Virus record (IMG/VR): IMGVR_UViG_3300043357_000064
Coordinates: 1 to 64,000 of that record
Reading direction: 5' to 3' (one strand)
Length of the DNA stretch: 64,000 nt
Source: a virus
The notes under the pieces: model-generated
Databases searched by the model: none
What the model saw: the letters and a program-made list of their open reading frames with translations, nothing else
Told to the model about the DNA's origin: nothing
Position numbers and translations under genes: made by a program
Shown: piece by piece, positions 4,217 through 54,998 of the stretch
How positions within the stretch are numbered: the stretch's first letter is position 1
Layout: each line of letters opens with the position of its first letter

Positions 4217-4695
4217 AGCTGCGACGCTGCACCTTCTGCCGAGGTGCCCGCTACCTCGACTGCCACCTCTGCGACGGCACCGGGACCGACTGCCCGCTGT
4301 GTGTAGGCGGCAAGGCGCCGTGCGGCTGCGCGAAGGACGTCCAGGACGGCAACCACGCCTACGCCAAGTACGCGGTGTCGCGCCTCGGGGTCATCTGGTC
4401 CGGGGCGCACTGGCGGTGCAGGCGTATCCACGTCGCCGTCGACCGGGCTGCCGACGTCCTGGCGGGTTCAACTGACCGGCGGGCAACGCTGGGCATCATC
4501 GTCGGCACGCATGTCGCAGGACGGCACGTCTGGTATCCGCACGACGCCGCCGAACTGGTGGCAGCCGGTCTGATCGCCGACGACGGGCCGGTGACGCCAT
4601 GCCCGGTTCGACGCTGGTATCGGCTGGTCGGCAACCCACGTCTACTCCCGTACCCGGAAGGCCGGGTAGTCCCGGCAGAGAAGAGCACCCGATGA
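4213..4695 (+). CDS. Zn-finger protein (DnaJ-type Cys repeats)
   Basis: 160 aa. CTFCRGARYLDCHLCDGTGTDCPLCVGGKAPCGC. Confidence 0.5.
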   Translation: MKLRRCTFCRGARYLDCHLCDGTGTDCPLCVGGKAPCGCAKDVQDGNHAYAKYAVSRLGVIWSGAHWRCRRIHVAVDRAADVLAGSTDRRATLGIIVGTHVAGRHVWYPHDAAELVAAGLIADDGPVTPCPVRRWYRLVGNPRLLPYPEGRVVPAEKSTR

Positions 4696-4913
4696 GCGGC
4701 CAGGTAGAGGTCCGGCTGCACGGGGTCAGGGCCGGTCACATCGGCTCCGACCGGATCGTCATGCCGACCGCGATGGCCGACGACCTGGAGCGCTGGTTCA
4801 ACGACCCGTCACGGGCCGACAGTCCGGCATACGTCACCCCCGCAGACGGCGGCGCCGAACTGGTGCTGAACCGGTCCGACTACTACGAATTTTCGCGACG
4901 GGCAGCCCGATGA
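4692..4913 (+). CDS. Hypothetical protein
   Basis: Internal ATG at 4692 (ATGA overlap) of track ORF 4599-4913. Confidence 0.45.
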   Translation: MSGQVEVRLHGVRAGHIGSDRIVMPTAMADDLERWFNDPSRADSPAYVTPADGGAELVLNRSDYYEFSRRAAR

Positions 4914-4949
4914 CCGGCGCGTCCCAACATCACCTGAGGGAGAACTGAC

Positions 4950-5090
4950 ATGGGCAAGAAGGTCAACAACGGCACGATCATCTACTCGCCAGGCAGCCAT
5001 TTCGGCACCGGGAACGTCACCAACACGACGGTCGTTAACGGCAAGGTCACGAAGACCGAGACCAAGAAGAGCGGGAAGGACAAGAAGTGA
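4950..5090 (+). CDS. Unannotated 46-aa Lys/Asn/Thr/Gly-rich peptide
   Basis: Below the track size cutoff. RBS GAGGGAGA 8 nt before the [49 protein letters not shown]. Its TGA overlaps the GTG of the Nudix gene (GTGA). Confidence 0.4.
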
Positions 5091-5650
5091 CCGTCACCGA
5101 AGACACCGTGCACGACACCGCCAGCATGGTCGTGTTCGACGGCAACTGGAACGACCCGCACGTCCTGCTGATCTTCCACAAGGCCGAGCAGCGCTGGCAG
5201 TTCCCCGGCGGCCACGTCGATCCGGGCGAGACGCCGCTCGACGCCGCGATCCGGGAAGTCCGTGAGGAGACCGGGGTGATCGTCACCGCGTGGTCCGGGC
5301 ATTTCCGTGGCGTCGCCCTACCGGACGGCGCGGTCGAGGAAGCGGCACCGCTGCACCTCGTCACCTATGCCGCGCCGCCGAAGCCGGACCGGCCCGGGAA
5401 GCCGGCCGAACCCGCCCACCGCCACCGCGACTCGCTGTTCGCCGGGATCGCCGACGCCGGGCCGCTGAACGCCGAACTGGCCGAGGTGGAAGGGGCGCGC
5501 TGGGTGCGGCTCCTCGACCTCGACGCAGACGGCATCCGCGTCGAGGTTCCCGGGATTGCCAGGGCCGCGTACGCACAGGTGGTTGAAGGAGTCCTGCCAC
5601 GGCGGCCGTACGGCACCCCCGGTGTGATGGCGGCGGGGGTCGGGCGGTGA
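5087..5650 (+). CDS. Nudix hydrolase
   Basis: Nudix box [24 protein letters not shown] (GX5EX7REUXEEXGU). Confidence 0.85.
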
Positions 5651-5970
5651 GCATCCTCGACCCCGACGAGCGTGAGCAGCAACTCGCCGCCGTCGTTGCC
5701 GGACGGATCCGGAAAGCAGCGGCGGACATGCGTGTCCTCTGCGCCCAGCTGGAGCGGCGCGCCGACCAGGTGTCAACGGTCGGTGGCGGGCGGAATTTCA
5801 GCTACACGATCCTCGTCGCCAGCATCCAGCACGACATCCGGGACGCATTTTTCACGGCCTGCCTCGACCAGCTCGTCCTGGCGGCGGGCGAGGCGGATCA
5901 GGTCCGTACGGCAAGGCTGGCCGTCGGCGTGGTGGCCGGCGACTACGCAGCGAAGGAGGCGTCGTCATGA
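5647..5970 (+). CDS. Hypothetical protein
   Basis: 107-aa ORF with 4-nt overlaps on both sides. Confidence 0.5.
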
Positions 5971-6263
5971 CGATCACAGCGGAGCGTCCGGTAGCCTTCC
6001 CGGCTATGACCGACGAGCCCAACGTCCTCGATCGAGCACGCGTTGCTCAGTTGATCGGCGTTCGGCCGGACACGATCACGATCTACATGCAGCAGTCCCG
6101 GCCCGGCGGACGATACGAGAAGACGCCGTTCCCGGCGCCGGATCCCGACCTGTCGATCGGCGGCTCGAAGGTGTGGCGCGCGTCCCGCAGGGACGAGATC
6201 CTGGCCTGGGCGCACGCCCGTCCCCGGCATGGCATTGGTGGCCGACCGCGCTCTGAGGGCTAA
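5967..6263 (+). CDS. HTH DNA-binding protein (excisionase/MerR-like)
   Basis: 98 aa. LDRARVAQLIGVRPDTITIYMQQ...KVWRASRRDEILAW. Same architecture as the 1435-1722 product. Confidence 0.5.
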   Translation: MTITAERPVAFPAMTDEPNVLDRARVAQLIGVRPDTITIYMQQSRPGGRYEKTPFPAPDPDLSIGGSKVWRASRRDEILAWAHARPRHGIGGRPRSEG

Positions 6264-6417
6264 CCACCCGTTTGCATGACGATCACATGTCTATTCGCGT
6301 CTGCCAGATTTAAAGGTCGAGCTGTATACTCGGCTCACAAGGTCGGCCCCCGAAGGTGGTTGCACACCAAGCGAGGGCCTAAGCCAACCCACCTGCCGTA
6401 AACAGGGAGTAGACCTA

Positions 6418-6789
6418 ATGGTCAACGTTACCAAGCCAGGAGTCTCAGAGCCGACCGAGGTTGGCGCCATCCGTAGCGGCATCGACTGCTGTATCGACTG
6501 CGGCGCGATCGTCCGGAAGCTCCGCCAGGGCGTCTGCCCCGAATGCTTCGACCCACGTCTCCGGCGTCTCCGCTGGCTCATCCGCCGCGTGCTCGTCGCC
6601 GTCTGGTCGCACCGTCCGGTCGTCACCACCAACCGACGGTGGAAGGACGCGATCGGCATCGAGGCCGGGAAGGCGTACCGGCTCGGCCGAACCTCGCTCG
6701 AGGTGGCACCCGTCCCGGCCAGCCCGGAGGTTCGCCAGCACGCAGAGCGCGTCACCTCGACCGGCGCCCGGCTGGTAGCCGTCATCTAA
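6418..6789 (+). CDS. Zn-ribbon protein
   Basis: 123 aa. CCIDCGAIVRKLRQGVCPECF. Stop abuts the rep start. Confidence 0.5.
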   Translation: MVNVTKPGVSEPTEVGAIRSGIDCCIDCGAIVRKLRQGVCPECFDPRLRRLRWLIRRVLVAVWSHRPVVTTNRRWKDAIGIEAGKAYRLGRTSLEVAPVPASPEVRQHAERVTSTGARLVAVI

Positions 6790-7293
6790 ATGAGCGAAGA
6801 CCAGACGTGGGTCAGCGTCGCGGCGGTCGCGTGGGTGCTCGACAGGGCACCCGTCCCGACTGAGTTGGCGCTGACCCTCGTAGCCATCGCACGCCGCGCC
6901 GACGCCAACGGGCGCGGCGCCCGTCCGTCTGTCGCAACCGTGGCGAAGGCGACCGGCAAATCACCGGACCAGACGCAGCGCGACATCGGGAAGCTTCGCG
7001 CGCTCGGTCTGCTCGTGCTGGGCGATCAGAGCCTCGTGGCGCACCTGCCCGCCCGGAACCGTCCCGTGGTCTACGACATGCCGCTGACGCTCGTGGGCGA
7101 CAAGCCTGCACGCGCGTCGAGGAACCCAACCGGCAAGGAGGGCGGCACCCGGTACGGCATCCATGCAGTATCGGAATCGGCCGACCGATCCGGCATGGAT
7201 GCAGGGTCTAGCACCGGCATGGATGCGGTATCGCGATCCGGCATGGATGCCGTACAGAAGAAGACCTTGAAAAAGACTTCTGAAAAAGACTAA
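6790..7293 (+). CDS. Replication-initiator-like wHTH protein, N-terminal part (ends at an in-frame TAA)
   Basis: 167 aa. Paralog of the 365-1207 N-terminal half. Contains SGMDA peptide repeats encoded by iterons. Confidence 0.6.
   Translation: MSEDQTWVSVAAVAWVLDRAPVPTELALTLVAIARRADANGRGARPSVATVAKATGKSPDQTQRDIGKLRALGLLVLGDQSLVAHLPARNRPVVYDMPLTLVGDKPARASRNPTGKEGGTRYGIHAVSESADRSGMDAGSSTGMDAVSRSGMDAVQKKTLKKTSEKD
7156..7250. repeat. Iteron-like repeats CCGGCATGGATGC (3 direct, 1 inverted)
   Basis: Direct copies at 7190-7202, 7214-7226 and 7238-7250 (24-bp spacing). Inverted ggcatccatgc at 7156-7166. Confidence 0.6.
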
Positions 7294-7345
7294 ACTTCTC
7301 TCTCAAGCTTTGACCTTGACTCACTAGAAGAACCGCCCGAGGACT
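7255..7345. promoter_or_regulatory. AT-rich patch next to the iterons (possible unwinding element), spanning the TAA
   Basis: agaagaagaccttgaaaaagacttctgaaaaagactaaacttctctctcaagctttgaccttgactcactagaagaa. Confidence 0.4.
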
Positions 7346-7362
7346 ACGACGAGAGAGAGGAT

Positions 7363-7917
7363 TTGCCTTTTCAAGATTCACAACCGGAAGAACCGAACCC
7401 GTCCTCGGTGCAACGCTCGTACCTACGGAAGTGCGGCATCGAGGACGAGACCCAACTTGCCGCCCTACCGTCGATCATCGAGCAGATGAACGACGTCAAA
7501 AGCCCGCGCGGATGGTGGTCCCACGCCTACGCCAACGGAACCCTGCCCGCCTGTATCGCCGACGCCAAGCCGTTCGTGTCCATGGCCGATATCTTCGGTG
7601 CCGGACCTTCGACCTCCAGCAGGAGCGACGTCTACGACGTCCCGTGGTGCACGAGTTGCGACGGCCGCAACACCCGGCGCGTCTACGTCGGCACCGGCCA
7701 CGACCTACGCAGCAACCCGTGCCCGACGTGCAGCCCGTTCCGGCAGCGAGCCGAGCTGGCGTACGACGGCCGACGCGTCTCGACCGAGCGCGAGATGGAC
7801 GCCTGGAACGCCAAGCCGTCAGGTCACAAGCCGTACCGCAATGAGCCGAACGCCGACTACACCGGAGACCTCGGAGCGCCGACCGGGCCGGAGAAGGACT
7901 ACGGCGGCGACCTGTGA
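7363..7917 (+). CDS. Rep C-terminal-half homolog (same frame as 6790-7293)
   Basis: 184-aa ORF from TTG. SVQRSYLRKCGIEDETQL aligns with DSIGAYLRKMADAEL of the 365-1207 product. Cys-rich C-terminus. Confidence 0.5.
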   Translation: MPFQDSQPEEPNPSSVQRSYLRKCGIEDETQLAALPSIIEQMNDVKSPRGWWSHAYANGTLPACIADAKPFVSMADIFGAGPSTSSRSDVYDVPWCTSCDGRNTRRVYVGTGHDLRSNPCPTCSPFRQRAELAYDGRRVSTEREMDAWNAKPSGHKPYRNEPNADYTGDLGAPTGPEKDYGGDL

Positions 7918-8029
7918 CACGGAAACGGCCCACACCTCGAGGATGCGGGCCGTCCGTATGTACTCGCGCGAAACGCCGAACACAATTCGGTGGAGTGGCC
8001 AGACGCCTGACCGGAGCACGTCTGCCGGC

Positions 8030-8299
8030 TCAATCCTGGATTGGGTCGGCATCTTCCTTGGGCTCGATGCCCTGGCGGATCTTCCCGTACTCGGCAAGTA
8101 GTCGACGTACGTCCTCGGGATTGCACTCTCGCTGATTGCCCGGTGTGCGCCGGTAGCCGAGCTTGCCGGCATTGAGCCAGTTGCGGACCGTGAACCGGCT
8201 CTTGCCGAATAACTCGCCAACCTCACCGGGTAGCAGCCACTCGTCGGCGTCGAGGCGCGCGCGCAAGGTTGCGACGTCGTCTCGACGTGGACGGATCAT
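8030..8299 (-). CDS. Excisionase-family HTH protein
   Basis: EWLLPGEVGELFGKSRFTVRNWLNAGKLGYRR. ATG at 8299 has a GGAGGG RBS; the track ORF extends to 8356. Confidence 0.55.
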   Translation of the reverse strand: MIRPRRDDVATLRARLDADEWLLPGEVGELFGKSRFTVRNWLNAGKLGYRRTPGNQRECNPEDVRRLLAEYGKIRQGIEPKEDADPIQD

Positions 8300-8418
8300 C
8301 GCACCTGCCCTCCGGGTCACCTTGTTGCAGGTGATCGTAGCTACCGCGACGCCCATGGTCGATTACCCGTCAATCTATCGATAACTCAATATGTGCCAGA
8401 CGTGCCGAGTGTGCCATC

Positions 8419-9807
8419 ATGGTACCCATGCGCGCATGGATCACCACCCTCACGGGACCGCTCGAAACCGTTACGCCGGTCGGTTGGACCGCGATCGGTA
8501 TCGCTGTGCTGCTGTTCGCGCTCTACGCGTGGATCAGCATCCGGCGCCGCCGATCCCTCGAGGCCGGGACATCCGTCGACAAAGCCGACCGTCTGCTGCT
8601 CTTCTTCGCGCTCGCGTTCGTCGCCGTCATCTTCGGCAGCTTCATGATCGGCACATTCGAAGGCAGCAGCGCGTTCGGCGTCGACAAACTCGGCTGGACG
8701 AACTGGCAGAAGGCCGTCCCGTGGGGATCACTCGACGCCGGATCCATCGGCTTCTCGCTCCTGGCAATCCGGGCCATCCGCAAGGAACGCTCACCGAAAC
8801 CGGCACTGCGGGTCGTGTTCCTGACCGCCGGCATGTCCGCCACCATCCAGATGATGGAAGGCGGCAAGGAGCACCACTGGCAGGCGGGGCTGTTCCTCGC
8901 CTTCCTCGCCGGCGTATCCGCCTATGCGCTGCACATCGTCATCGACCAGTTGCGCAAGGTCGGCCACGTCGCCGTCGACATGCGGGTGCGGAAGTACCCG
9001 CCGTTCGGCATGCGCTGGCTGACCTCGCTGCCGTCGACACTCTGCGCCTGGCTCGCCTGGGTCAACTACCCGCCGCTGCGAATCACCCCGACCGTCGCGA
9101 ACGCGCTCGTCCACCTCGACTCGGTACGGGCGGCGAAGCGGGCACGGATGGTGGAGCGGCCGATCTGGTGGATCGTCCAGCCGTGGCTCTACGCGAGCCG
9201 CACCGAACAGTCGCGAGCCGAACTGGTCGCGGAATCTGTTCGCCTGACCGAACAGGTCCGGGAGCGAACAGAATCTCTGTCCGCCGCGAACAGGGATCAC
9301 GAACACCGCGAACAGGAACTCCGCGAACAGGCCGAGCGAGATCTGTCCGCAGCCGTACAGGCCGCGCGAACAGAGACCGAACAGTTCGTACGCGGACAGG
9401 CGGAACAGACGATCGCCGGACTGCGCGAACAGATCGAACGCCTGGAGGTTCGACGGGCACCAGATCCGCGTCCGCAGCGGACGGGACAGGTTCCTGTCCG
9501 ACCAAAGGCCGAGGTCTCAGCTCTGATCGGCGACGAACAGATCGCCAAGGCCCTGTTCCGCGACTTCGCCGAACAGACCGAACAGGCCGCGCGGAACGGA
9601 ACGCGAACACCCGGACGCGGATGGGTCGAACGCAACGGCGGATGCCACATGCGCCAGGCGCTCCGAGTGCTGGACATGCTGGAGAACAGGTTCGCCGAAC
9701 AGAACAGAACCGGTCGCGAACAGGCGAGCGGACAGTTCGGTGAACCGAACAGCGAACAGTCCGGCGCCGACGATCCGGAGCGCGAACAGGTGGCGATCGC
9801 GCTGTGA
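8419..9807 (+). CDS. Multi-pass membrane protein with Glu/Gln/Arg-rich C-terminal half (Spd/DUF2637-like guess)
   Basis: 462 aa with about 5 hydrophobic helices in the first 200 aa. The C-terminal half carries the GAACAG array. Confidence 0.55.
   Translation: MVPMRAWITTLTGPLETVTPVGWTAIGIAVLLFALYAWISIRRRRSLEAGTSVDKADRLLLFFALAFVAVIFGSFMIGTFEGSSAFGVDKLGWTNWQKAVPWGSLDAGSIGFSLLAIRAIRKERSPKPALRVVFLTAGMSATIQMMEGGKEHHWQAGLFLAFLAGVSAYALHIVIDQLRKVGHVAVDMRVRKYPPFGMRWLTSLPSTLCAWLAWVNYPPLRITPTVANALVHLDSVRAAKRARMVERPIWWIVQPWLYASRTEQSRAELVAESVRLTEQVRERTESLSAANRDHEHREQELREQAERDLSAAVQAARTETEQFVRGQAEQTIAGLREQIERLEVRRAPDPRPQRTGQVPVRPKAEVSALIGDEQIAKALFRDFAEQTEQAARNGTRTPGRGWVERNGGCHMRQALRVLDMLENRFAEQNRTGREQASGQFGEPNSEQSGADDPEREQVAIAL
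9205..9789 (+). repeat. Array of 20 same-strand GAACAG hexamers (16 as SCGAACAG)
   Basis: Start positions 9205, 9250, 9266, 9288, 9310, 9325, 9368, 9379, 9403, 9427, 9535, 9571, 9580, 9684, 9697, 9702, 9718, 9747, 9754 and 9784. Only 2 reverse copies (9236, 9553). Confidence 0.8.
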
Positions 9808-9955
9808 GCATCCGAGCCTTCGCCTTCCTCCTCTTCGAGGTATGGCGTACACCGCGAAACCGCCGGCATGTTGTCCGGCTCTGCCTGGTCGCCTACCTCG
9901 AGGTGGCGGCCGTACAGCTTCGATCCAACCGCGAACTAGCAGCGAGGAGCACGAG

Positions 9956-10135
9956 ATGACCAGCACAGCCATGGTCCGGCACGAACCGGGCCCACGTCCC
10001 GGCACCGACCTTGTTCCGGCCAATCCGCAGCGTGAGCGCCGCGCACGTCCGGCGTTCGTCGTGTTCTTCCTTCTCGCCATCGCCGCGATCGTGGTCATGG
10101 CCGCGATATCCCTCGTGTCGACCTTCACCTCCTGA
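9956..10135 (+). CDS. Small single-pass membrane protein
   Basis: 59 aa from ATG 9956 (RBS GAGGAG). FVVFFLLAIAAIVVMAAISLV. Confidence 0.4.
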   Translation: MTSTAMVRHEPGPRPGTDLVPANPQRERRARPAFVVFFLLAIAAIVVMAAISLVSTFTS

Positions 10136-10164
10136 ACCTCTCCGACCAGCAGAAAGGCAGTGGC

Positions 10165-10431
10165 ATGCCACTGGCATTTCACGAAATCCGGACCGTCAAA
10201 CAGGGCCGCGACGTCCACCAGGCGCCGCCGTACCTGTACCGGATCGACATCGACGACCAGGCCGCCACCGCCGACCTCCTCGCCCGGCACATCTACGCCG
10301 TCGTCGACCGGGCCGGCGACGACCGCCGCAACGCCCACCTGTACGAACTGCGAGTCCACAAGGTAGACGGCCGCCAGCAGGGCTACGGCGAGCCGGTGTT
10401 CCGGTTCGCGCTCCCGGTGACACTGCCGTGA
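10165..10431 (+). CDS. Hypothetical protein
   Basis: 88-aa ORF. Confidence 0.45.
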   Translation: MPLAFHEIRTVKQGRDVHQAPPYLYRIDIDDQAATADLLARHIYAVVDRAGDDRRNAHLYELRVHKVDGRQQGYGEPVFRFALPVTLP

Positions 10432-10679
10432 CCGCCGCGACCAGCGTGAAGCTGAACCCGAGGGCCGCACGGTCGCTGCGCACACGTCAGGCGTTCCACC
10501 GGGACCTGATCGCGTCGGCGCCGACGTGGCGGATGCGCGCCGACCGGATCGCGGGCTGGATCACAGCCGAGGGCGTCCATCTCGGCGACGCCGACCGGGC
10601 CGAGATCGAACAGAAACTGACCGCGCTCGCATACGAGATGCACCGGCGGAACGGGGGAGAAGATGACCGGCCACAGTGA
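10428..10679 (+). CDS. Hypothetical protein
   Basis: GTG at 10428 (GTGA overlap) in track ORF 10011-10679. Confidence 0.4.
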   Translation: MTAATSVKLNPRAARSLRTRQAFHRDLIASAPTWRMRADRIAGWITAEGVHLGDADRAEIEQKLTALAYEMHRRNGGEDDRPQ

Positions 10680-11112
10680 CATGCCACCGGCCGATGCCAC
10701 TGTATTGGCACACGTCGACAGGGCGCGGGCGCGTGTGCGCACGCGCGCGATCGTAGCGGGCGCCGGGGAGGGCGGCAAGATCCCTCGCGTTCTCGTGACC
10801 GCGGTCGCGGACGTCCGTGCCGACGCCTGCCGGTGGTGGCTCTACACGTCCCGGCCACCGTCGCTGAAAACCTGGAACCGGACGCTGAAGGTCGGCGCAT
10901 CCCAAGTCCCCGGCGACAGCACCCTGCTGCGCCGAGCGTGGACCGTCGACAACCACACCACCGGACGCGTCTTCCGGTATGCCGCGACCGGGCTGCAGCT
11001 CGCCGCGGCCGGACTCGCCTGGCTCGCCTGCACGCCGGCACGCCGCTGGTTCGCACTCCTCATCGTCGCGGTCTTCACCGCGCCGATCGTCATCCACTCC
11101 CTCACCAGCTAG
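10663..11112 (+). CDS. Membrane protein (Spd-like position)
   Basis: 149 aa with a C-terminal pair of hydrophobic helices. Confidence 0.45.
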   Translation: MTGHSDMPPADATVLAHVDRARARVRTRAIVAGAGEGGKIPRVLVTAVADVRADACRWWLYTSRPPSLKTWNRTLKVGASQVPGDSTLLRRAWTVDNHTTGRVFRYAATGLQLAAAGLAWLACTPARRWFALLIVAVFTAPIVIHSLTS

Positions 11113-11123
11113 GAAGGATTCTC

Positions 11124-11525
11124 ATGTGGGAGCGTTTCGGATCCCTCATCCTCTGTTCCGCGTTCCTGTACGCGGCCGTCAAAATCCACAAGTCGACGGG
11201 TAGGCACGGCAAGGTCACGAAGCCCACCGGGATCGTCCTGTCGTTCCTCGCCGGCCTCATGTTCCTGGTGACCGTCACCGGCGCCTGGGTCGCCGCGTTC
11301 GCCCGGAACACCGGCGTCCTGGGTGCCGTGATCCTCATCGCCGTCATCGTCATCCTCGGCGCCGACTGGCTCCACGACCGCAAGCCGGACCGCGGCGCGT
11401 TCTGGGCGGCGTTCGCGCTCGGATTCGCGATCGTCGTCGGCCTACCCCAGATGCCCGCCGTCGGCCACCAGATCAACCGTGGCGGGCAGATGGTCATGAG
11501 TTCCATGTCGTCCGGCCGGAAGTGA
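11124..11525 (+). CDS. Four-helix membrane protein (Spd-like position)
   Basis: ATG at 11124 with GGAAGGA RBS, inside track ORF 10833-11525. Confidence 0.55.
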   Translation: MWERFGSLILCSAFLYAAVKIHKSTGRHGKVTKPTGIVLSFLAGLMFLVTVTGAWVAAFARNTGVLGAVILIAVIVILGADWLHDRKPDRGAFWAAFALGFAIVVGLPQMPAVGHQINRGGQMVMSSMSSGRK

Positions 11526-11529
11526 CACC

Positions 11530-12501
11530 GTGATCCTCGGAGCCCTCGTCATCGCCGCGTTCATCATGGTCGTCCCGTCGTGGGCTGCGGACGGGATCGC
11601 AGCCGTGCGAGCGGCCTGGACCAACGACCAGAAGTACCTGCGGGAGGATCAGGAACGCCGCCGCGCCCGCACGCAGCGGATCGCTGACGCCTGGTCGCAC
11701 CGGCGGGCGACCCGATCGCTGAACGCGGGCGGCGACGGCACCTACCGGGCCGGCATCGGCGCCTACATCGATGACCTCTACCACGGATTCTTCGAAGACC
11801 AGCTGGAGCGCTCGCAAGTCAAACGCGCCACCCGCGATCCGTACACCTACGACCCGGGGCGGCCCGGGTTCGCTGAGCGCTTCGCGAACCGAGTGGATGC
11901 CGTCATCGTCGGCCAGGCTGAACGGCTGCGACGCAAACGCGAAGGGTCGCTACCGGTCGAGGACTTCGACGACATCAAGCCGACTGCGAACCCGGTCGAT
12001 ACCGGGGAGGCGCCGCTCGTCCCCGTCGTGCGCCTGCGCATCGCCTGGCCGCCGGAACCATCCGACGACGATTCACCCTCACCCGAGCAGCCGGCTGCGG
12101 CTGCACCAACCGAAGGAGCACCAGCAGTGAGCACCGGAACCGTAGACGTGACGACCAACGAGGACGTCCGCAACAACGCGGCCGTAATCGCCGCAGCCGC
12201 GGCCAAGATGCAGGAGGGGCTCGCCATCTACGAGGCCGCCCGCGCGGAGGCACAGGCGGCGCAGGCGGCGACGGCCGACGCCATGTCGGGCGCAACCTTC
12301 GACGGCGGCGCCGTCGCGGCGACCGCTGATGTCGGCGACAGCCTCGACGTCGCGGCGATGTCGCACCTGGCCGAGGTCGCCGACAACGTCCATGCGGGTG
12401 CGCAGGCGATGTACCAGCACGTCGAGAAGTACCGCGACGCCGAGGACCTCGTCGCCCAGACCGGCGTCTCGCCGGAGACGCTTGCCGCGACCTCGTCCTG
12501 A
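11530..12501 (+). CDS. N-terminally anchored protein with Ala-rich C-terminal domain
   Basis: 323 aa. N-terminal TM ILGALVIAAFIMVV. Confidence 0.55.
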   Translation: MILGALVIAAFIMVVPSWAADGIAAVRAAWTNDQKYLREDQERRRARTQRIADAWSHRRATRSLNAGGDGTYRAGIGAYIDDLYHGFFEDQLERSQVKRATRDPYTYDPGRPGFAERFANRVDAVIVGQAERLRRKREGSLPVEDFDDIKPTANPVDTGEAPLVPVVRLRIAWPPEPSDDDSPSPEQPAAAAPTEGAPAVSTGTVDVTTNEDVRNNAAVIAAAAAKMQEGLAIYEAARAEAQAAQAATADAMSGATFDGGAVAATADVGDSLDVAAMSHLAEVADNVHAGAQAMYQHVEKYRDAEDLVAQTGVSPETLAATSS

Positions 12502-12540: not shown

Positions 12541-14940
12541 GTGAACGACCAGTACGCGCACAAATCCGACAGGAGCCTGATCGTGACCACGACCACCGAA
12601 CGGCCCGACACGGGTACGCCGATCGCCGTACCCGCGGTGCGCAACCGGCGTCCGCTGCCCGATGGTGCGGTGAAGTGGTCGAAGCTCTACATGGACGACC
12701 GCGGCGCGCACGAGTCCCCGTTCGATGTCCCGGTCGACGCCAACGACCGGCGGACCGCTCACCTCCGGGTCACGTGCCCGAAGGCGCCGGAGTGCACCCG
12801 CGATGCGTGGGTTGAGCCGCACGGCGTCGTCATCTTCTGTCGCGACCATGGGGCACCGATGTCGGCCGAGCGGACGAAGCGCGATCCGGTGCTGCCATGG
12901 TCTGCCATGTGGCAGACGATCGAGAAGCCGCTGCGCCCGGCGTGGGTACTCGCTGCGGAGGCCGCGGCCGGGCTCGGGATGTTCGAGGGCGAGTTCACTC
13001 CGCTGGCCGCCGTGCTCGCCGGCGGTTGTGCGACCGGCGCGGCATACGCGGGCACCCGGATCTACCTGACGAAGCGCGCGGTCCGGCGCAGCAAAATCGA
13101 GAAGGGCCAGACGACCGGCCGGCACGTGGAGACGATCCGGCGGCGGTCGCGGACCGCAGGCTACATCGGGGCGATCGGCACCGCGTGGCTGACCGCCGCC
13201 ACGACCGTGGATCCGGCGACCGTGCTGGGCCGGGTCGTGTGGGCGTCGCTGCCGATCGCGTGGGCGGTCAGCGCGGCGCCGTGGTGGCGCTACCTCGATG
13301 CCGACCGCAACCGGCCGGCGCCGGTGGTCGCGACGGCGCCCGTGCCGGTTGATGCCACGCCGAGCGACGATGCGATCGCCGCCGCCGATGCCGCGGCGAG
13401 CTGGACCGCTGACGTCGGGTTCGCCAACACCAGGCTCGACCCTGCCACGTGGCAGCGGACGGTTGCCGGGTGGCAGGCTGTCATCGTCGCCACCAAGAAG
13501 GGCGCCCTGGTCTCGCTCACCGACATCGAGCGGATGAAGTCGACGGTGGCGAAGATCGCCGCCGGGTATGGCGTGAAACGGGCCGCGATCACATGGATCA
13601 GTGAACACGACGACGACCCGAACCGGGCCCTGCTCCTCGTCCAGCCGAACAACCCGCTGAAGGACGGCCAGATCTGGGAAGGTCCGGACTCCGTCGACAT
13701 GGAGAAGGGCCGGGCCGTTTCGGGCCGGCTGATCAACGGGGATCCGCTTTACGAGGTGCTGTTCAAGCCGGGTTGGGGCGCCCCGAACAGGGTCACCCTG
13801 GGCACGACCGGCGGAGGTAAAAGCGAGCGCATCAGACAGCGGCTGATCATCGAGCGCTGGGCGCACTACACGGATGCCGTCACCGGCGCCAAACAGGGCG
13901 CGTTCATGTCGTTCCTCCACGACCCGAAAGACATGGACTCCTACGGCGAGTTCGTTGGCGCGCTCCACGCCTACGGAACGACCCGCGACGACGCCCACAT
14001 CATGGTCGACGCGTTCACTAGGGAAATGGACCGGCGGTTCGCGTTCAAACGGTCGATCACCTGGAGGGACAAGCGGCACGGCCGGGAGCGTTTCGGGTCG
14101 CTGCCGTGGGATCCGCGTGTTCACGGCCCGATCCTGTCGGCGATCTGGGACGAGTTCCACGAGATGGCAGGGGACAAGGAGTTCGTGACCAAGATCGAGC
14201 GCCTGGCCCGCAAGCAGCGCGCAGGCGGCATGACGCAGGAAGTCGCTTCGCACGGCGGGACGATCGGTGACATGGGGTCGCAGGTGCTCCGGGACCTCGG
14301 CGGCGGCATTACGACCCTGTTGCAGACGAAGAACGCGCTCAACGCTGCGCTCACTGCCGGCGGTGCGGCGGTCGGCGACCCGCGAACCCTACCGCGCGAT
14401 CCGGGCATGTGCTTCGTGGTCGATGGCGAGACGCAGTCGGCGATGATGGCCCGCGGATCGTGGATCCCGTACGACGAGGAGACCCACGAGGTCACGCTGT
14501 ACGACTACCTCTTCGACGAGCACAACCAGCCCATCGGATATCCGGCAGCGATTCCGCCGGAGACCGCCGAGGCATTCGGGAAGGAGTTCATGGAGTGGGC
14601 CGAGGCGGGCAAGAAGCCGGGTGGCCGGGACGCGAAAGCTATGCCGGGCGCGGCGTTCGTCCGGACGGCCGGTGCGCCTGCGGACGCGACCGCTGAGGCG
14701 GTGCTGCGGCGCATCCTATTCGACTCACCGAAGCCGCTGGCCCGTACGGAGATTGCCACGGACCGTCGCTGGACGTTCGGCGTGTCGACGATGACCAACG
14801 TTTTCCGCCGTGGCCAGGATGCAAAGCCGCCGTGGCTGATCCGCCGCCCCGAGGGCAAGGGCGCGTACGAGTTGACGCCTGCGGTGCGCGAGGAGATGGC
14901 CGGGACGGCAGACGAGGATTTCGAGGACCGGGCCGCGTGA
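12541..14940 (+). CDS. FtsK/SpoIIIE-family DNA translocase (TraB-like conjugal transfer protein)
   Basis: 799 aa. N-terminal TM helices. Walker A GTTGGGKS, Walker B-like ILSAIWDEFHE. C-terminal wHTH-like segment RTEIATDRRW...WLIRRPEGKGAYELT. Confidence 0.85.
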   Translation: MNDQYAHKSDRSLIVTTTTERPDTGTPIAVPAVRNRRPLPDGAVKWSKLYMDDRGAHESPFDVPVDANDRRTAHLRVTCPKAPECTRDAWVEPHGVVIFCRDHGAPMSAERTKRDPVLPWSAMWQTIEKPLRPAWVLAAEAAAGLGMFEGEFTPLAAVLAGGCATGAAYAGTRIYLTKRAVRRSKIEKGQTTGRHVETIRRRSRTAGYIGAIGTAWLTAATTVDPATVLGRVVWASLPIAWAVSAAPWWRYLDADRNRPAPVVATAPVPVDATPSDDAIAAADAAASWTADVGFANTRLDPATWQRTVAGWQAVIVATKKGALVSLTDIERMKSTVAKIAAGYGVKRAAITWISEHDDDPNRALLLVQPNNPLKDGQIWEGPDSVDMEKGRAVSGRLINGDPLYEVLFKPGWGAPNRVTLGTTGGGKSERIRQRLIIERWAHYTDAVTGAKQGAFMSFLHDPKDMDSYGEFVGALHAYGTTRDDAHIMVDAFTREMDRRFAFKRSITWRDKRHGRERFGSLPWDPRVHGPILSAIWDEFHEMAGDKEFVTKIERLARKQRAGGMTQEVASHGGTIGDMGSQVLRDLGGGITTLLQTKNALNAALTAGGAAVGDPRTLPRDPGMCFVVDGETQSAMMARGSWIPYDEETHEVTLYDYLFDEHNQPIGYPAAIPPETAEAFGKEFMEWAEAGKKPGGRDAKAMPGAAFVRTAGAPADATAEAVLRRILFDSPKPLARTEIATDRRWTFGVSTMTNVFRRGQDAKPPWLIRRPEGKGAYELTPAVREEMAGTADEDFEDRAA

Positions 14941-27130: not shown

Positions 27131-29953
27131 CTAGAACGCCCTCCCCACCTGCATCATCGCCTCGGCCGTGGCCTGCAGAGCCATCTGGTCGTGGACGGAC
27201 CAGTTGGCCTGCTGCGGGTTGACGACGAAGCTGATCGACGGCGAGTACGTGGAGTGCGAACCGCCGCCGCTTCCGCCGCCGCCGTTGGCGACAAACCTTC
27301 CGCCGTACCAGCGGGCTTCCTGGTCGATGATCGACGTCGATCGCCGGTAGTTGCCGTACTTCGGTACGAACCCCTCGCCGCCGGTCGACGGCTCGGCGAA
27401 CGCGTACCGCGCCCCGGAGGAGACGGCACCGTAGACGTTGGCATCGCGTAGCGCGCCGGTAGCGGCGTGCGTGTAGACGCCGCCCCAGCGGTTGACACTG
27501 CCGAGACCGTGATTGCTGAGTTGGTCGAGGACCTTCTGTCCGTGGATTGTTAGGTCGAACTGGATCGGTTTGGTCTTCTGGATGTCGTAGATCAGGTCGT
27601 GGAGAGTCTTGGCCTTATTGATCGCGTCGTCTGCGCCCGGCGTCGTGATCGGCACGGCTTTGGCTGGGGGCATCTTCCCGAACGTGCCGATCAGATTGTT
27701 GATCTGCGTGTCTGTCAGTCCGGCGTCGTGCAGCACCTTCCGGAGTGCCTTGGTATACAAGTCATAAGTCGCCGAAGCCTTTTCCACGGACCCGGTCTGG
27801 ACCCTGACCGCTTCGGCTGCCTTGTTGGCCTTGTCGATCGTGTCGAGAATTCCGGTGTTGTTGTCGCGCCCGGCCTGACTGTTGATGTCGAGGGCCTTGC
27901 CGCTTCTCAGCGCAGCCTTGGTGCTCTTGCCGAGAAGAGTCGTCAAGTCGTCGAGCGACTGGTTGAACGCGATCCCCGTTTCCTCGACCGAGATGTTCGC
28001 GCCGTTCAGTTCGTTGAAGACAGTGACAAGGGTTTCGCCGCGAGCAATGGCGATCTGCAATCCCTCGTTCATGATCGACAGCTTCGCTGACGATGATGCA
28101 AAGCCGAGGGCAAGCGCCGTGTTGCTCTGCGCTGCGTCGTCGGCGGCGGCCGTGTATTTCGGGAACAGCTTCGCGGCTTCAACCGACGTTAGGCCCAGTG
28201 TCTTTATCAGGTCCTGGAACTCGAGGTTGGCCTGACTTACACCGCCCTGCGTTGCCAGTTGGCTGAACAGGGTGTCGAGGTTGCCAATATCTGCTTTGCC
28301 CTGCGCCTGGAGATTATGGAGAGCCTCGTTGAGTTCAGCGAGCGCGGTGGCGTTTTTGACGACCCCCGCAGCAGTGAAGTCCGGCATGTGGAGGCCTTGG
28401 ATTTCCCTCGACAGGGTTCCCAGCTTCGGGCCGAAGTCCGACAGCAGTTCACCGGTGATCTTCCCGGTGTCGGCGAGGCCACGGAGGCTCTTCGACAGGG
28501 CGTCGGTGTTCCGCTCGATCGGCTTGAAGTCGTCCTGCGACGTGTGAAGGACGAGTTCCGCACCGGCCACGAACGCCGCCACACCGAGCGCCACGAGTCC
28601 GGCCACTCCGGCGAACCTGCCGAACGTCCCGAGAAGCGTCGCCGCCTTCTCGCCCGCAGGGCCGATGTCCGTCAGGGTCTTGAAGAACTCAGTGCCGGCG
28701 GCATGGGCCTTCGTGAAGGCAACTGCGGCCAGAAGGGTCACGCCGGTGATGCCAGCAATGTCGACGATGCCCGACTGGATCGCGTTGGGCATCGCGGTGA
28801 AGGCGTTTGTCAGTTGCGTAACGCCTTGGGTCAGGAATCGCAGCGCAGGCATGGCGCTCTCACCAGTTTTGATGGCGAGCGTCTCGACCGATCCCTTCAG
28901 TTGCTCAACGTCACCGGAGAGGTTGTTCATCTTCTGCGCGGCAGTTGTCGCGGCAGCCCCGGACTGGTTCGACTTGTCGATCCAGGACTGAATCCCGACC
29001 GCTCCCTGCGTGAACAGAATGTCGGCGGAGCGGACGGCATCGTTGCCGAAGATCTGCGCAAGGGCCTGATCGCGCTGCGCCTGCGTAAGGCCGCCGAGCT
29101 TGTCCTGAAGGTTCTGCGCGAGCGCCGTGATGCCGATGAACTTGCCGCTGGTGTCGTAGGCGTTGATGCCGAGTTGCTTCATCAAGTCGGCGGTCTTCTG
29201 CGATGGTGCCTGCAACTGCTGCAGCATGACCTTGAACGAGGTGCCAGCGTCGGAGCCGACAAGGCCGTTCTGCGCGAAGGCCGCCAGGGTGCCGACGGTG
29301 TCCTCGAGCGACAGGCCCGTCTGGTGTGCGACGAGACCGGCCTGGTTGAGCGCCTGCCCGAGTTGACTGACGTCGGTGGCTGATGTGTTCGCGCCTGCGG
29401 ACAGTTCGTCGGCGATGTGTCCGACGTCCTTGCCCGACAGGCCGAAGATGTTCATGGCCTGCGCGGAGATCGTCGCTGCGTTCGCCAAGTCGATCGAGCC
29501 GGCCGAGGCCAGAGCCATCGAACCCTTGAGCGCTCCGCCGAGGATGTCCGCAGCAGATACTCCGGCCTTGGCGAGTTCGGCCTCAGCCTTCGCGGCTTCC
29601 GTCGCGGAGAAGACGGTGTCCCGTCCGGCGTTGATCGCAGCCGTTCGAAGTGCGTCCATCTGGTCGGCGACCTGCTGAACAGACATGCTGGCGTCGGTCG
29701 TGACCGCCTGCACTTCGCTCATCTGCTTGTCGAACTTCATCGTCGCGTAGACGACGCCCGCGAATACGGCGGTCAGAGCCAGGCCAAACTTCGCCGTCTG
29801 GCCGGTGATGGTGCCGAACTTTTCCTTCGACGTTTCCGACAGTGTCTGGATCTCGCCCGCGAGTTCCTTCGTCGCAAGGCCCGCCTGTCGCATGTTGGCG
29901 ACGTAGCTCGACATCTTCGCCGACAGTTCGACAGAAATGCTTCGGATCGACAT
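27131..29953 (-). CDS. Tape measure protein
   Basis: 940 aa, Ala/Gly/Leu-rich helical with central hydrophobic segments. Follows the G/G-T chaperones. Confidence 0.85.
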   Translation of the reverse strand: MSIRSISVELSAKMSSYVANMRQAGLATKELAGEIQTLSETSKEKFGTITGQTAKFGLALTAVFAGVVYATMKFDKQMSEVQAVTTDASMSVQQVADQMDALRTAAINAGRDTVFSATEAAKAEAELAKAGVSAADILGGALKGSMALASAGSIDLANAATISAQAMNIFGLSGKDVGHIADELSAGANTSATDVSQLGQALNQAGLVAHQTGLSLEDTVGTLAAFAQNGLVGSDAGTSFKVMLQQLQAPSQKTADLMKQLGINAYDTSGKFIGITALAQNLQDKLGGLTQAQRDQALAQIFGNDAVRSADILFTQGAVGIQSWIDKSNQSGAAATTAAQKMNNLSGDVEQLKGSVETLAIKTGESAMPALRFLTQGVTQLTNAFTAMPNAIQSGIVDIAGITGVTLLAAVAFTKAHAAGTEFFKTLTDIGPAGEKAATLLGTFGRFAGVAGLVALGVAAFVAGAELVLHTSQDDFKPIERNTDALSKSLRGLADTGKITGELLSDFGPKLGTLSREIQGLHMPDFTAAGVVKNATALAELNEALHNLQAQGKADIGNLDTLFSQLATQGGVSQANLEFQDLIKTLGLTSVEAAKLFPKYTAAADDAAQSNTALALGFASSSAKLSIMNEGLQIAIARGETLVTVFNELNGANISVEETGIAFNQSLDDLTTLLGKSTKAALRSGKALDINSQAGRDNNTGILDTIDKANKAAEAVRVQTGSVEKASATYDLYTKALRKVLHDAGLTDTQINNLIGTFGKMPPAKAVPITTPGADDAINKAKTLHDLIYDIQKTKPIQFDLTIHGQKVLDQLSNHGLGSVNRWGGVYTHAATGALRDANVYGAVSSGARYAFAEPSTGGEGFVPKYGNYRRSTSIIDQEARWYGGRFVANGGGGSGGGSHSTYSPSISFVVNPQQANWSVHDQMALQATAEAMMQVGRAF

Positions 29954-37108: not shown

Positions 37109-37368
37109 CTCTCCTTGCTGGGGGCGCGTTTCGCGGGCGCCCTACGTACGGGCTTGGCTGGCTCTCGGATGTCGACCGCTACCGGTCCATCGCCGGCGGA
37201 CTCCTCCGGCTCGGGAGCGGAGGACTCCGGACGTGCTGACGTTGCCGCCAGGTCTGTCCGGAGTCCTCTCAACTCGTCGATGACCAGTTCCAGGAGTTCG
37301 TCCGTCGTGGTGATCGGGTGCGGCCCGTGACGGCCGGCCACGTCAGGACAGCGTCGAGTTCGACGCAA
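37105..37368 (-). CDS. Hypothetical protein (start uncertain)
   Basis: 87-aa track ORF overlaps the capsid gene end. A GTG near 37341 would remove the overlap. Confidence 0.35.
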   Translation of the reverse strand: MRRTRRCPDVAGRHGPHPITTTDELLELVIDELRGLRTDLAATSARPESSAPEPEESAGDGPVAVDIREPAKPVRRAPAKRAPSKES

Positions 37369-38545
37369 CGGCGCTCTTGGGGTCCATGAGCACGCCGCCG
37401 AGGACGTGGCGGACCCGGTAGCGGATGCCGTCGGTGGCGAAGTCGCCGTCCTCCGGGCCGACCATGCCGCCGCCGACGCGCATGGCGTCGGGAGCCTTCA
37501 TCCACAGGTCCGGCACCTCGTGACCCGTCAGGAAGCCCATCTCCATCGCCGGGCGGCCCTCGTTCGGGTTCGCGACGAGATACCACGACTGGTTGCCGTG
37601 GGTGGTGTCGATGATCGGCAGCCACGGGTTGACGACGACGGTGACCTTGTTCTGCATCCAGTTCGCGACACGCAGGACATCGTTTCCGGTCAGGTCGCCA
37701 CCACCGGTCGCACCGATGATCTCGGTCGCGTTGATGATGTTGTTCGCGGTGACCTCGAGCGCGGGCGGAACCACGAGGGTGACGCCGTTGATGTAGATCG
37801 GGCCGCCGTCGGAGTCGACCTGCGCCGCGAGGACCGTGAACGCCGTCTGCAGGCCGGACACCGACAGAGCCGGGTTCGCGGTGACGATGTTCTTGTTCCC
37901 CGAGGAGAAGAACGTCGCGTTCGGACCGGTCGAAGAGGCGAACAGTGCCGTGGCGAAGTTCTCCTCCGTGCGGCGGGCGGCGAGCGCAAGTGCGTTCGGA
38001 AGTTCGGCGAACGCGTCGAGGTCGTCGTTAATGACCGACTCCCACGAGATGTCGATCTCGGCGCCGTACTTCGTCAGCGAGTACTCGTACTTGCCGTCGG
38101 CGACCGCTCGCGCCGTGTACGGGGCGAGTTCCTTGACCGCAGACAGGAGTGCCTTGCCGCCGTCGAGGGTGAACCGGCGGACGAGACGGAAGTCCCGGAC
38201 CCGGCCGCGCTTCGCCCACGCATCCCAGCGGATCGGCATCGTGCTGTACGCGGCGAGCATCTGCCGGTCGATGACGTCGGCGAAGATGTAGGAGAAGTCC
38301 GACCGGGACAGATTCTCCTGGAAGTCGAGCGCGGCCCGCCGGTTACCCGTCAGGACGTTCTCGTACATCCGCATGACCCGCAGGACGTCCGCCCGGTGCT
38401 GCGGGCTTTCGTTGCTGCGGCCACCGACGCGCCGGCCTTCACCGGCGAAGATGTTGGTGGTAGCGGCGGCATCAGTGCCCGCCTCGTACGAGGCGATCCG
38501 GCTGAGACCGGAACCCACGGCGGGAGCCATTGTGGTAACAGACAT
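37343..38545 (-). CDS. Major capsid protein (HK97-fold type)
   Basis: 400 aa. Position after the scaffold/protease and DUF2190 genes. Confidence 0.8.
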   Translation of the reverse strand: MSVTTMAPAVGSGLSRIASYEAGTDAAATTNIFAGEGRRVGGRSNESPQHRADVLRVMRMYENVLTGNRRAALDFQENLSRSDFSYIFADVIDRQMLAAYSTMPIRWDAWAKRGRVRDFRLVRRFTLDGGKALLSAVKELAPYTARAVADGKYEYSLTKYGAEIDISWESVINDDLDAFAELPNALALAARRTEENFATALFASSTGPNATFFSSGNKNIVTANPALSVSGLQTAFTVLAAQVDSDGGPIYINGVTLVVPPALEVTANNIINATEIIGATGGGDLTGNDVLRVANWMQNKVTVVVNPWLPIIDTTHGNQSWYLVANPNEGRPAMEMGFLTGHEVPDLWMKAPDAMRVGGGMVGPEDGDFATDGIRYRVRHVLGGVLMDPKSAVASNSTLS

Positions 38546-40864: not shown

Positions 40865-41000
40865 TTAACGGCTCCCCACGGATAAATCCGGGGGATTCCC
40901 AGCTCAGACCGCACCCGATCCACCGCCCCGGAGGGAGGCAATCGAATGTCTGATGTCGTCAGCACTGGCACGGTTACGCTCAGCCGTGGCGAGGATCGTC
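40865..41000 (-). ncRNA. Predicted omega/reRNA scaffold of TnpB (extent approximate)
   Basis: By analogy with characterised TnpB systems: overlaps the tnpB 3' end and RE. Not directly demonstrable from sequence. Confidence 0.35.
40874..40894 (-). repeat. RE subterminal hairpin
   Basis: ccccacgga-taaa-tccggggg (plus strand), 9 nt from the element end. Confidence 0.65.
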
Positions 41001-42046: not shown

Positions 42047-42096
42047 GGTTTCTTCCACATCGTCAACTATACAGCACTGCGCCATATACTGTTGCC

Positions 42097-48993: not shown

Positions 48994-49009
48994 GGCGCCT
49001 CCCGAAGGG

Positions 49010-49045
49010 TGCAGCCCGCAGCGGGGAGGTGTGCTGCGGGCTGCA
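49010..49045 (-). promoter_or_regulatory. 13-bp perfect-stem hairpin just upstream of the TerL RBS
   Basis: tgcagcccgcagc-ggggaggtgt-gctgcgggctgca. Confidence 0.5.
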
Positions 49046-49057
49046 GTCGATCGGGTG

Positions 49058-54776: not shown

Positions 54777-54998
54777 GTGAAGCTGTCGGAATGGGCAAGA
54801 CGGAATGGTGTGCACTACCAGACCGCCTGGCAGTGGGCACGCGACGGGAAGATGCCGGTGCCTATCACCAAGACCGAGACCGGGCGGTACTTGGTTCTCG
54901 TGCCAGAGCCAAGCGTTGACAAAACGACGGTTGGATATTGCGTCTGTGGACGCCGGATCGAGGTCTCCGATTTCGTGACGGCGCCAGTGGTCCAATGA
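54777..54998 (+). pseudogene. tnpA: IS607-type TnpA reduced to its N-terminal MerR-like HTH
   Basis: MKLSEWARRNGVHYQTAWQWARDGKMPVP matches the IS607 TnpA N-terminus. Only 73 aa; the serine-recombinase catalytic domain is absent. ATGA overlap with tnpB. Confidence 0.6.

Follow-up and report, generated by a model that had tools for sequence, protein, structure and literature searches.

A multi-frame array of GAACAG words within a membrane-protein gene of a TraB-like module in an actinobacterial phage genome

The window analyzed here is a 64,000-nucleotide stretch of DNA (positions 1 to 64,000 of IMG/VR virus record IMGVR_UViG_3300043357_000064). It derives from a siphovirus-like phage or prophage whose host is a high-GC (65.6%) actinobacterium. 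One of its genes encodes a membrane protein and carries the short word GAACAG throughout its 3' half. The question raised by this locus is whether the word results from the peptide that it encodes or is present as a DNA signal, and, in the latter case, which factor reads it. An earlier reading of the letters alone (the sequence-only reading) had proposed a clt locus, i.e. an array recognized by the TraB-like translocase encoded 2.7 kb downstream of the membrane-protein gene. The array is shown here to be kept by selection on the DNA, which makes it a cis-acting DNA feature of the transfer module. The gene that contains the array (the host gene) and its parts are as follows.

8419..9807, + strand: host gene, 462 residues, first gene of a spd/traB-like module (translation, family searches, model)
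9205..9789, + strand: GAACAG array, 20 direct copies in all three reading phases (word counts and permutations)
9160..9453, + strand: long helix of the host protein, residues 248-345, predicted local distance difference test (pLDDT) 63-80, with the first ten word copies inside (model)
9532..9723, + strand: C-terminal three-helix bundle, residues 372-435, pLDDT 81-88, with seven word copies inside, proposed to be the reader of the array (model)

The array and the selection that keeps it

The 20 GAACAG copies on the + strand between 9205 and 9789 are accompanied by two reverse copies (9236 and 9553) and are spaced irregularly, 5-108 bp apart. The longer word CGAACAG accounts for 17/20 of the copies and SCGAACAG for 16/20, the latter being divided into nine copies of GCGAACAG and seven of CCGAACAG. 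The consensus of the array is SCGAACAG, usually followed by a purine. Relative to the start of the open reading frame (ORF) at 8419, the 20 copies are distributed 14/2/4 over phases 0, 1 and 2, and the order of phases along the array is 0,0,1,2,0,0,1,0 and so on. A recount gave the same copy numbers, 8-mer split and phases as the sequence-only reading. Tandem Repeats Finder detects no tandem-repeat structure in the array, only short local periods of 9, 15 and 24 bp. A periodogram over 14 arrays peaks at 11.5-11.7 bp (30 vs 14 expected), which is marginal after multiple testing and confounded with alpha-helix periodicity; therefore, helical phasing is not used here.

The GAACAG array is by far the strongest array of the window in an unbiased sliding 7-mer scan of the 64 kb. 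The whole window contains 62 matches of GAACAG on both strands, compared with 24.9 +/- 4.9 expected from dinucleotide shuffles, and 22 of the 62 fall inside the 585-bp array. Outside 9205-9789 the density of the word is ordinary and its orientation matches the direction of the genes, since CTGTTC encodes Leu-Phe. A KOPS-like skew of the genome was also considered and rejected because the orientation outside the array follows the coding direction.

The codon-preserving shuffles that the sequence-only reading had suggested as a check were run (n=5000) in such a way that neither the protein nor the GAA-rich codon usage of the gene was altered. The GAACAG total of 20 compares with 10.7 in the permuted genes (maximum 16), the six off-frame copies with 0.59 (maximum 4), and the 16 copies of SCGAACAG with 4.9 (maximum 12). 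The observed totals are reached by 0/5000 permutations. Since choosing the best word afterwards inflates such tests, a corrected statistic was adopted in which the highest count among all non-simple 7-mers is compared with that in 500 synonymous permutations. The top 7-mer of the host gene occurs 17 times, while the permuted mean is 6.1 and the maximum is 11. All 14 Glu-Gln pairs in the host gene are spelled GAA-CAG, compared with 5/29 in the rest of the window, where GAA makes up 34% of the Glu codons outside the host gene. The off-frame copies are spelled with the rare codons CGA (10%) and ACA (7%).

Orthologs of the gene allow the word to be followed through evolution. In a codon alignment of the orthologs L001, L004 and L020, 9/31 word positions are common to all three. 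Pairwise retention of the word is 45-80%, compared with 19-34% for background 7-mers of the same coding region (a 2-3-fold difference, P 1e-4 to 1e-2), and the identity of third positions is 0.79-0.86 in the words vs 0.66-0.72 elsewhere. The homolog alignment that had been proposed with the original reading therefore shows the word to be kept above background, and Glu-Gln is not preserved where the sixth base differs. Where the relatives have C or T instead of A as the sixth base of the word, their proteins have Pro or Leu instead of Gln next to Glu. CGAACAG (Glu-Gln) of the window thus corresponds to CGAACCG or CGAACTG (Glu-Pro, Glu-Leu), and these are radical replacements in a predicted helix. 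The protein sequence follows the DNA word. In another related locus, L023, two copies of the word of that locus (CGGACA) lie in non-coding DNA 5' of the start codon. In-frame duplications cannot shift a word between frames; therefore, selection explains the pattern better than slippage. The permutations, the rare codons and the retention between orthologs all agree with the earlier claim that the word is maintained as DNA beyond its Glu-Gln codons.

Further loci were reached via TraB homologs and are referred to by L numbers. Each has a membrane-protein gene of about 310-520 residues located 2.5-5 kb upstream of traB. In 14/17 of these equivalent genes a top word is in multi-frame excess: the count of the 7-mer is above that in all, or nearly all, synonymous permutations, and its copies are distributed over two or three frames. 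The word itself differs from locus to locus. It is CGAACYG in L001, L004 and L020, CGARCAG in L003, GCGGAGCG in L021, CCGGACAC in L023, CGGACAG in L006, GTTGCGG in L025 (with L024 borderline), CCCCGACAGGGT in L026, ACCGTCAC in L005, CGACAAC in L007 and CCGGAACCCC in L032, while L002 has two words, CCGAGCAG and CGGCTCG. Strand bias is marked in the window (20:2), L001 (20:4), L003 (16:2) and L007 (9:1). The arrays of L021 (16+/11-) and L006 (14+/6-) occur in both orientations, and the word of L022 is nearly palindromic. The array of L005, an IMG/VR contig (4030-5010), passes about 500 bp beyond the stop codon and through the next two small ORFs. It is built of CGTCAC/GTGACG, the half-sites of the sps palindrome CGTCACGTGACG, and includes CCGTCACCGGTGACG.

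Control genes of the same loci, TraB genes included, have no word excess (0/27, all P at least 0.175). Four linear plasmids of Streptomyces and Kitasatospora (L027-L030), whose equivalent proteins are Ala/Glu/Arg-rich coiled coils, have no clear excess and mainly single-frame top words (P = 0.18, 0.08, 0.03 and 0.98). Therefore, a charged coiled coil with codon bias does not itself give the signal. The null explanation of the sequence-only reading, a Glu-Gln-rich coiled coil with biased codons, fails for the window, whereas the coiled-coil equivalents on the plasmids largely fit it. DUF2637 (PF10935) is matched by the equivalent proteins of L007 (E 3e-51), L027, L030 and L034 (the last a precomputed match) and weakly by that of L022 (E 0.0018); the host protein of the window has no Pfam match to it.

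The sequenced plasmids L027-L030 have their module genes in the same order. A regulator gene (GntR and/or WhiB) comes first, then the gene of a DUF2637-type coiled-coil membrane protein and, after three to five further genes, that of a TraB-like protein with a winged helix. The genes are annotated merely as 'hypothetical' or 'helix-turn-helix domain-containing protein', and mobility typing in PLSDB classifies 3/4 of these plasmids as non-mobilizable.

The host protein is composed of an N-terminal polytopic membrane domain, the long helix, a linker, the small C-terminal three-helix domain and an acidic tail. The array spans residues 263-457 and thus covers helix, linker and bundle. The model of the protein is poor overall (pLDDT 52), with more confidence in the long helix and the three-helix bundle. 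The protein has no match in Pfam, PHROGs or NCBIfam and only four relatives in 5.8 billion clusters. A tblastn search with it against annotated phage and plasmid records gave no match, and neither did nucleotide searches of such records. A second ORF of 450 codons (8391-9743, + strand) covers nearly the whole gene in another frame. The T-poor composition makes stop codons rare, and the product of this ORF is Arg/Thr/Pro-rich nonsense, so that it is taken to be spurious. The frame 8419-9807 is the genuine gene, as seen from its membrane-protein translation and high third-position G+C.

Which factor reads the word

The neighboring features that bear on the identity of the reader are as follows.

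12541..14940, + strand: TraB-like dsDNA translocase, 799 residues, with four membrane helices (120-256), Walker A at G421-K427 and Walker B at D537-E538 (relatives, AlphaFold model)
14692..14874, + strand: C-terminal winged-helix-like unit of TraB, with the putative recognition helix VSTMTNVFRRGQDA (model)
8030..8356, - strand: small HTH_17 (Xis/MerR-like) gene, divergent, a conserved neighbor in many related loci (family searches)

The sequence-only reading had described the 799-residue protein as an FtsK/TraB-like translocase with a C-terminal winged helix, and the fold, the Walker motifs and the membrane helices confirm this. The protein is missed by Pfam (the FtsK_SpoIIIE model included), NCBIfam and a sequence search of the PDB. 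Among the structures matched by its AlphaFold model (pLDDT 81) are FtsK motor domains (2iut, E 5e-13), TcpA (a coupling protein) and EccC, as well as phage proteins named FtsK translocase. Walker A and B are invariant among its 36 relatives. The winged-helix-like unit follows the order helix-helix-helix-strand-strand (helices 718-728, 735-739 and 748-760; strands 766-769 and 775-778).

The claim that this unit reads the array was addressed by an indirect, comparative test, namely covariation of word and putative recognition helix across 11 loci. With the TraB winged helix as the reader, a change of word would be expected to go with a change of recognition helix, and in the loci compared this is not so. 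The TraB proteins of L022 and L023 are 100% identical, and the words differ (YGGACCR vs CCGGACAC). L024 and L026 have the identical putative recognition helix TSTMTAAIKANE and TraB proteins that are 92% identical in the final 95 residues, while their membrane genes and words are unrelated. L020 and L021 are one residue apart in the recognition helix and have different words. Conversely, L024 and L025 have a word in common although the final 95 residues of their TraB proteins are only 40% identical, L006 and L023 have CGGACA in common with TraB proteins that are 30% identical, and L003 has the word of the window beside a P-loop protein for which BLAST shows no relation to the TraB of the window. 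Since identical TraB proteins or helices occur with unrelated words and divergent ones with the same word, TraB is rejected as the main reader. From these sequence comparisons, recognition by TraB in the manner of pSVH1 is probably not what the array serves. The original clt proposal therefore holds insofar as a short-repeat cis array does lie upstream of a TraB-like gene, but the covariation with the TraB helix that it would entail is absent. A clt in which the TraB winged helix reads the 8-bp words as pSVH1 TraB reads TRS, and then loads and pumps the element, is accordingly quite unlikely. The FtsK-like fold, the membrane helices and the winged-helix-like unit would suit such a role, and the arrays are mostly co-oriented with traB. 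Known clt loci are arrays to which the Tra protein binds at direct repeats of 5-9 bp (PMC3583192, PMC4447253), and words such as CCGGACAC and ACCGTCAC resemble these repeats. The GGAC core common to the words of L022 and L023 also leaves room for a loose preference of TraB.

The only part that changes together with the word in the loci compared is the 3' half of the membrane gene itself. L022 and L023, two metagenomic contigs, provide a natural cassette swap in which the membrane gene, with 36-78 bp upstream, has been replaced by an unrelated one (3219-4261 in L022, 3205-4261 in L023). The DNA is identical over the adjoining 4262-11413 (7152 bp), which includes the whole TraB gene, and around the word change the exchange is limited to the membrane gene and its short upstream leader. 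A second difference between the two contigs lies at about 1372-2147, in the 3' end of a GntR-like regulator gene. Domains are also shuffled within the membrane gene. The membrane domains of L020 (2-1405) and L021 (2702-4189) are 88% identical and unrelated to that of the window, while the C-terminal half and word of L020 are of the type of the window and L001 and those of L021 are of a different type. L006 and L023 have no more than the C-terminal domain in common (67% identical), yet each has about 20 copies of CGGACA along the whole gene, including copies in the non-homologous 5' ends and in non-coding DNA. This comparison suggests a link between word and C-terminal domain that is not trivial. 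A scan of viral contigs for carriers of the L006/L023 domain returned L006 itself only.

The explanation preferred here, which is tentative, is a cassette of site plus binder. By analogy with SpdA2, which binds sps, the C-terminal domain of the gene's own product would bind the array and tether the DNA of the element at the membrane. The three-helix domain, which looks like a helix-turn-helix, would bind the 8-9-bp word SCGAACAG(R). The polytopic anchor would hold this domain at the membrane and the helix of about 100 residues would extend it, so that with about 20 sites many copies of the protein could coat some 600 bp of the element. The dsDNA of the element would thereby be tied to the membrane beside the TraB-like pore, and the array would mark it as 'self', whether the purpose is spreading, stable inheritance or transfer between cells or compartments. 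Under this proposal each related element has its own word because site and binder travel as one cassette. Every cassette type, as judged by eye, terminates in the pattern of a helix, G-x-S/G-x-x-R/K-A and a second helix.

Several points weigh against a binding role of the gene's own product. The covariation of word and C-terminal domain is partly trivial, since the array lies in or beside the DNA of the domain and would be co-inherited with it regardless. The assignment of the domain as a helix-turn-helix comes from a shallow-alignment model and a reading of the sequences, and it only looks like one. Pfam finds nothing for nine C-terminal domains of the cassettes, Foldseek finds nothing with the low-confidence model of the host protein, and an exhaustive HMMER search with the C-terminal 91 residues gave six matches in 1.84 billion representatives, none of them informative. 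Among the equivalent genes, L022 (P 0.066) and L024 (P 0.056) are borderline, and L034 has no word excess (P 0.2). The sample is about 18 loci, several of which are mutually related. The sense-strand bias of the array (20:2) would also fit a role at the RNA level equally well.

Such a role, in which the words act in the mRNA, either by binding a small RNA or an RNA-binding protein or by forming a structure that controls the downstream spd/traB operon, is nevertheless very unlikely. Most arrays have a strong sense-strand bias, the array of L005 extends into the next ORFs of the same transcription unit, and the 601-nt stretch 9200-9800 (+ strand) has a folding energy of -273 kcal/mol vs -236 in dinucleotide shuffles (z = -4.35, from only 20 shuffles). 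However, the arrays of L021 and L006 run in both orientations, the L022 word is close to a palindrome, and palindromic pairs such as CCGTCACCGGTGACG resemble the sites of a dimeric DNA-binding protein. The cassette encodes no candidate RNA-binding reader, and Rfam has no family match for the array, only one sub-threshold match on the opposite strand.

The word might instead be read by another trans-acting factor from outside the cassette, such as a host or phage regulator or a partition or nucleoid protein, with the array serving as a centromere, silencer or sponge; this is unlikely. The selection on the DNA and the retention between orthologs would fit such a factor, and short-repeat centromere-like arrays are common in plasmids (the omega heptads of pSM19035, the StbA sites of R388, ParR-parC). 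CGAAC is also a half-site of the Gram-positive and mycobacterial LexA box. However, the word changes in L022 and L023 when the cassette alone changes, with an identical backbone and presumably the same host. The LexA half-site idea was rejected since the full palindrome is absent from the array (no GAAC-N4-GTTC) and the words of other elements are unrelated to it. The HTH_17 neighbor was likewise tried and rejected as the reader because it does not covary with the word; the HTH_17 proteins of the window and L021 are 51% identical and the words differ, while those of the window and L003 are 25% identical and the word is the same. It is also improbable that the array is a functionless by-product of a weakly constrained, low-complexity coding region, formed by slippage or duplication together with compositional and codon bias. 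The base composition of the array is odd (A 25%, T 10.6%, in a region of 64.5% G+C), short local periods occur in it, and the word sites turn over between orthologs. Three tandem 8-bp units in L006, 24 bp in total, bring one word into three frames by a single in-frame step. The phase order in the window would, however, require many compensated frameshifts, and the words are better conserved than the surrounding coding sequence. The genuine low-complexity coiled coils of the plasmids lack the signal, the same word occurs in non-homologous and non-coding contexts, and the array overlaps a conserved, folded C-terminal domain.

The module in its phage setting

The remaining features of the module and of the phage that surrounds it are as follows.

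5087-5650, + strand: NUDIX hydrolase gene (family search)
6790-7293, + strand: O-like HTH_36 initiator gene (family search)
10833..12501, + strand: two genes between the membrane gene and traB, 230 and 323 residues, in spd-like position, without an assigned function and with no word excess
27131-29953, - strand: tape-measure protein gene
37343-38545, - strand: capsid protein gene

The early genes occupy 1.4-15 kb on the + strand. The phage genes on the - strand encode the tape-measure protein, a Gp37-like tail protein, the capsid protein, a Mu-F-like protein and the large terminase, so that the TraB/spd-like dsDNA transfer module is located inside a siphovirus-like genome. The same pairing of module and phage is seen in relatives, namely L022 (Acb5 and structural-looking genes) and the IMG/VR contigs L005-L007. 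None of the annotated phages in INPHARED has the host protein or the TraB-like protein. A tblastn search with TraB gave only distant matches to Streptomyces plasmids, and scans of genomes and metagenomes with a TraB profile gave only distant or short loci.

The large terminase (Terminase_6C, 893 residues, 46537-49218, - strand) has a LAGLIDADG_3 domain at residues 343-393, which is probably an intein or an inserted homing endonuclease. The window also contains two genes for IS605-family TnpB / Cas12f-like proteins (OrfB_IS605 and TNB domain) at 40904-42085 (- strand) and 54938-56212 (+ strand), one of which is situated between capsid-assembly and head-morphogenesis genes. An N6/N4 DNA methyltransferase gene is found at 62011-62781 (- strand), without an obvious restriction partner nearby.

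A virion-free passage of phage DNA from cell to cell has been suggested for the Spd/TraB homologs of actinophages (PMC4447253). This suggestion can be put to the test with the array, its putative binder and the natural swap between L022 and L023. A wider proposal, possible but rather doubtful, is that tailed phages of high-GC actinobacteria carry a TraB-type module whose specificity comes from an exchangeable cassette, a membrane-anchored DNA binder bearing 10-25 of its own words, so that the phage genome is marked as 'self' and delivered to the pore. If so, phage DNA could spread between cells or hyphal compartments without virions or be inherited while tethered to the membrane, and a swap of the cassette would alter the identity of the element.

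If the word is indeed read by the product of its own gene, the array would be a clear example from nature of a coding sequence that is overlaid, in all three frames, with a dense code for protein binding. The binding code would dictate amino acids, with Gln, Pro or Leu set by the sixth base of the word. It would also identify what confers DNA specificity, so far a missing element, on the TraB/spd-like modules of actinobacterial phages, a large and unannotated group whose proteins match no family model. The selection-corrected multi-frame word test could locate further cassettes, and the array is a caution for codon optimization of such genes.

Comparison with known systems

Full-text literature on DUF2637, phage SpdB2 and clt/TraB contains no description of arrays of this kind that could be found. 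The density (10-25 copies), the multi-frame overlap with coding sequence, the cassette-specific words and the location in TraB modules of tailed phages appear to be new.

The asymmetric 8-bp word, its strong strand bias and the nearby FtsK-family motor with a C-terminal winged helix are reminiscent of FtsK-KOPS and SpoIIIE-SRS. Both are polar 8-bp motifs. KOPS occur along the entire chromosome and reverse their skew at dif, whereas the word of the window is concentrated in one gene and has no replicon-wide skew there. A more distant analog is lambda O, which binds the iterons of ori inside gene O (in the segment between its domains), and in related phages the site varies together with its binder, as a cassette. 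The likeness lies in the repeated sites within the gene of the binder, which is a proposed one in the window. The iterons of the lambda ori are four in number and 19 bp long, they adjoin an AT-rich region, and their binder O is a soluble initiator of replication. In contrast, the words of the window are 8 bp long, number about 20, have no AT-rich flank and lie in the gene of a membrane protein, while the O-like HTH_36 initiator is encoded separately (6790-7293). The array does not fit an iteron-type origin, with repeats of 17-22 bp beside an AT-rich segment in or next to an initiator gene.

The closer systems are those of actinomycete plasmids. In the operon of pSVH1 the order is spdB3-spd79-spdB2-orf108-traB (PMC4447253), and as in the window a membrane protein is followed by several small genes and then by the translocase. 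SpdB2 of pSVH1 is an integral membrane protein that forms oligomers and is encoded upstream of traB in this operon, and it binds dsDNA and TraB (PMC4447253). The host protein is likewise a membrane protein encoded upstream of traB. SpdB2, which has reported homologs on actinophages, binds DNA non-specifically (PMC4447253), and no site array has been described for it, which sets it apart from the proposed binder.

Known clt loci comprise nine CCGCACA[C/G][C/G] repeats in pJV1, TGACACC in pWTY27 and the 8-bp TRS in pSVH1, all Tra-bound (PMC3583192, PMC4447253). They have 3-9 repeats in 50-175 bp, are mostly non-coding, lie beside or overlap the end of tra and are bound by the winged helix of Tra (PMC3583192, PMC4447253). 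The window shares with them a cluster of short (5-9 bp) direct repeats specific to an element whose FtsK-like TraB, with membrane helices and a winged helix, would move dsDNA, and CCGCACA and TGACACC are similar in style to CCGGACAC and CGTCACC. It differs in that about 20 copies extend over 585 bp, wholly inside another gene 2.7 kb upstream and in three phases, and in that words of this type do not covary with TraB.

SpdA2 of pIJ101 binds sps palindromes inside its own coding region, where they shape its SRDD/E motif, and the phenotype is segregational stability (PMC4170104). In both systems a motif inside the coding sequence of a gene of a spread or stability module constrains the encoded peptide, with binding by the gene's own product being putative in the window. 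The word CGTCAC/GTGACG of L005, and only of this distant locus, is the half-site of sps. The sps is a single 12-bp palindrome in 1-3 copies, nearly invariant among plasmids, and SpdA is a small soluble protein of 117-163 residues with an N-terminal DNA-binding region (a conserved stretch of 50 residues) (PMC4170104). Arrays of the window type have 10-25 mostly direct copies of cassette-specific words, and the sps palindrome is not the word of the window, which consists of direct repeats of SCGAACAG. The protein of the window is 462 residues long and membrane-anchored, and its putative binding domain is C-terminal. By analogy, the array may function like clt or sps, as a short-repeat cis site of an actinomycete transfer or spread module; it lacks the covariation with the TraB recognition helix that marks a clt, and it is not an sps.

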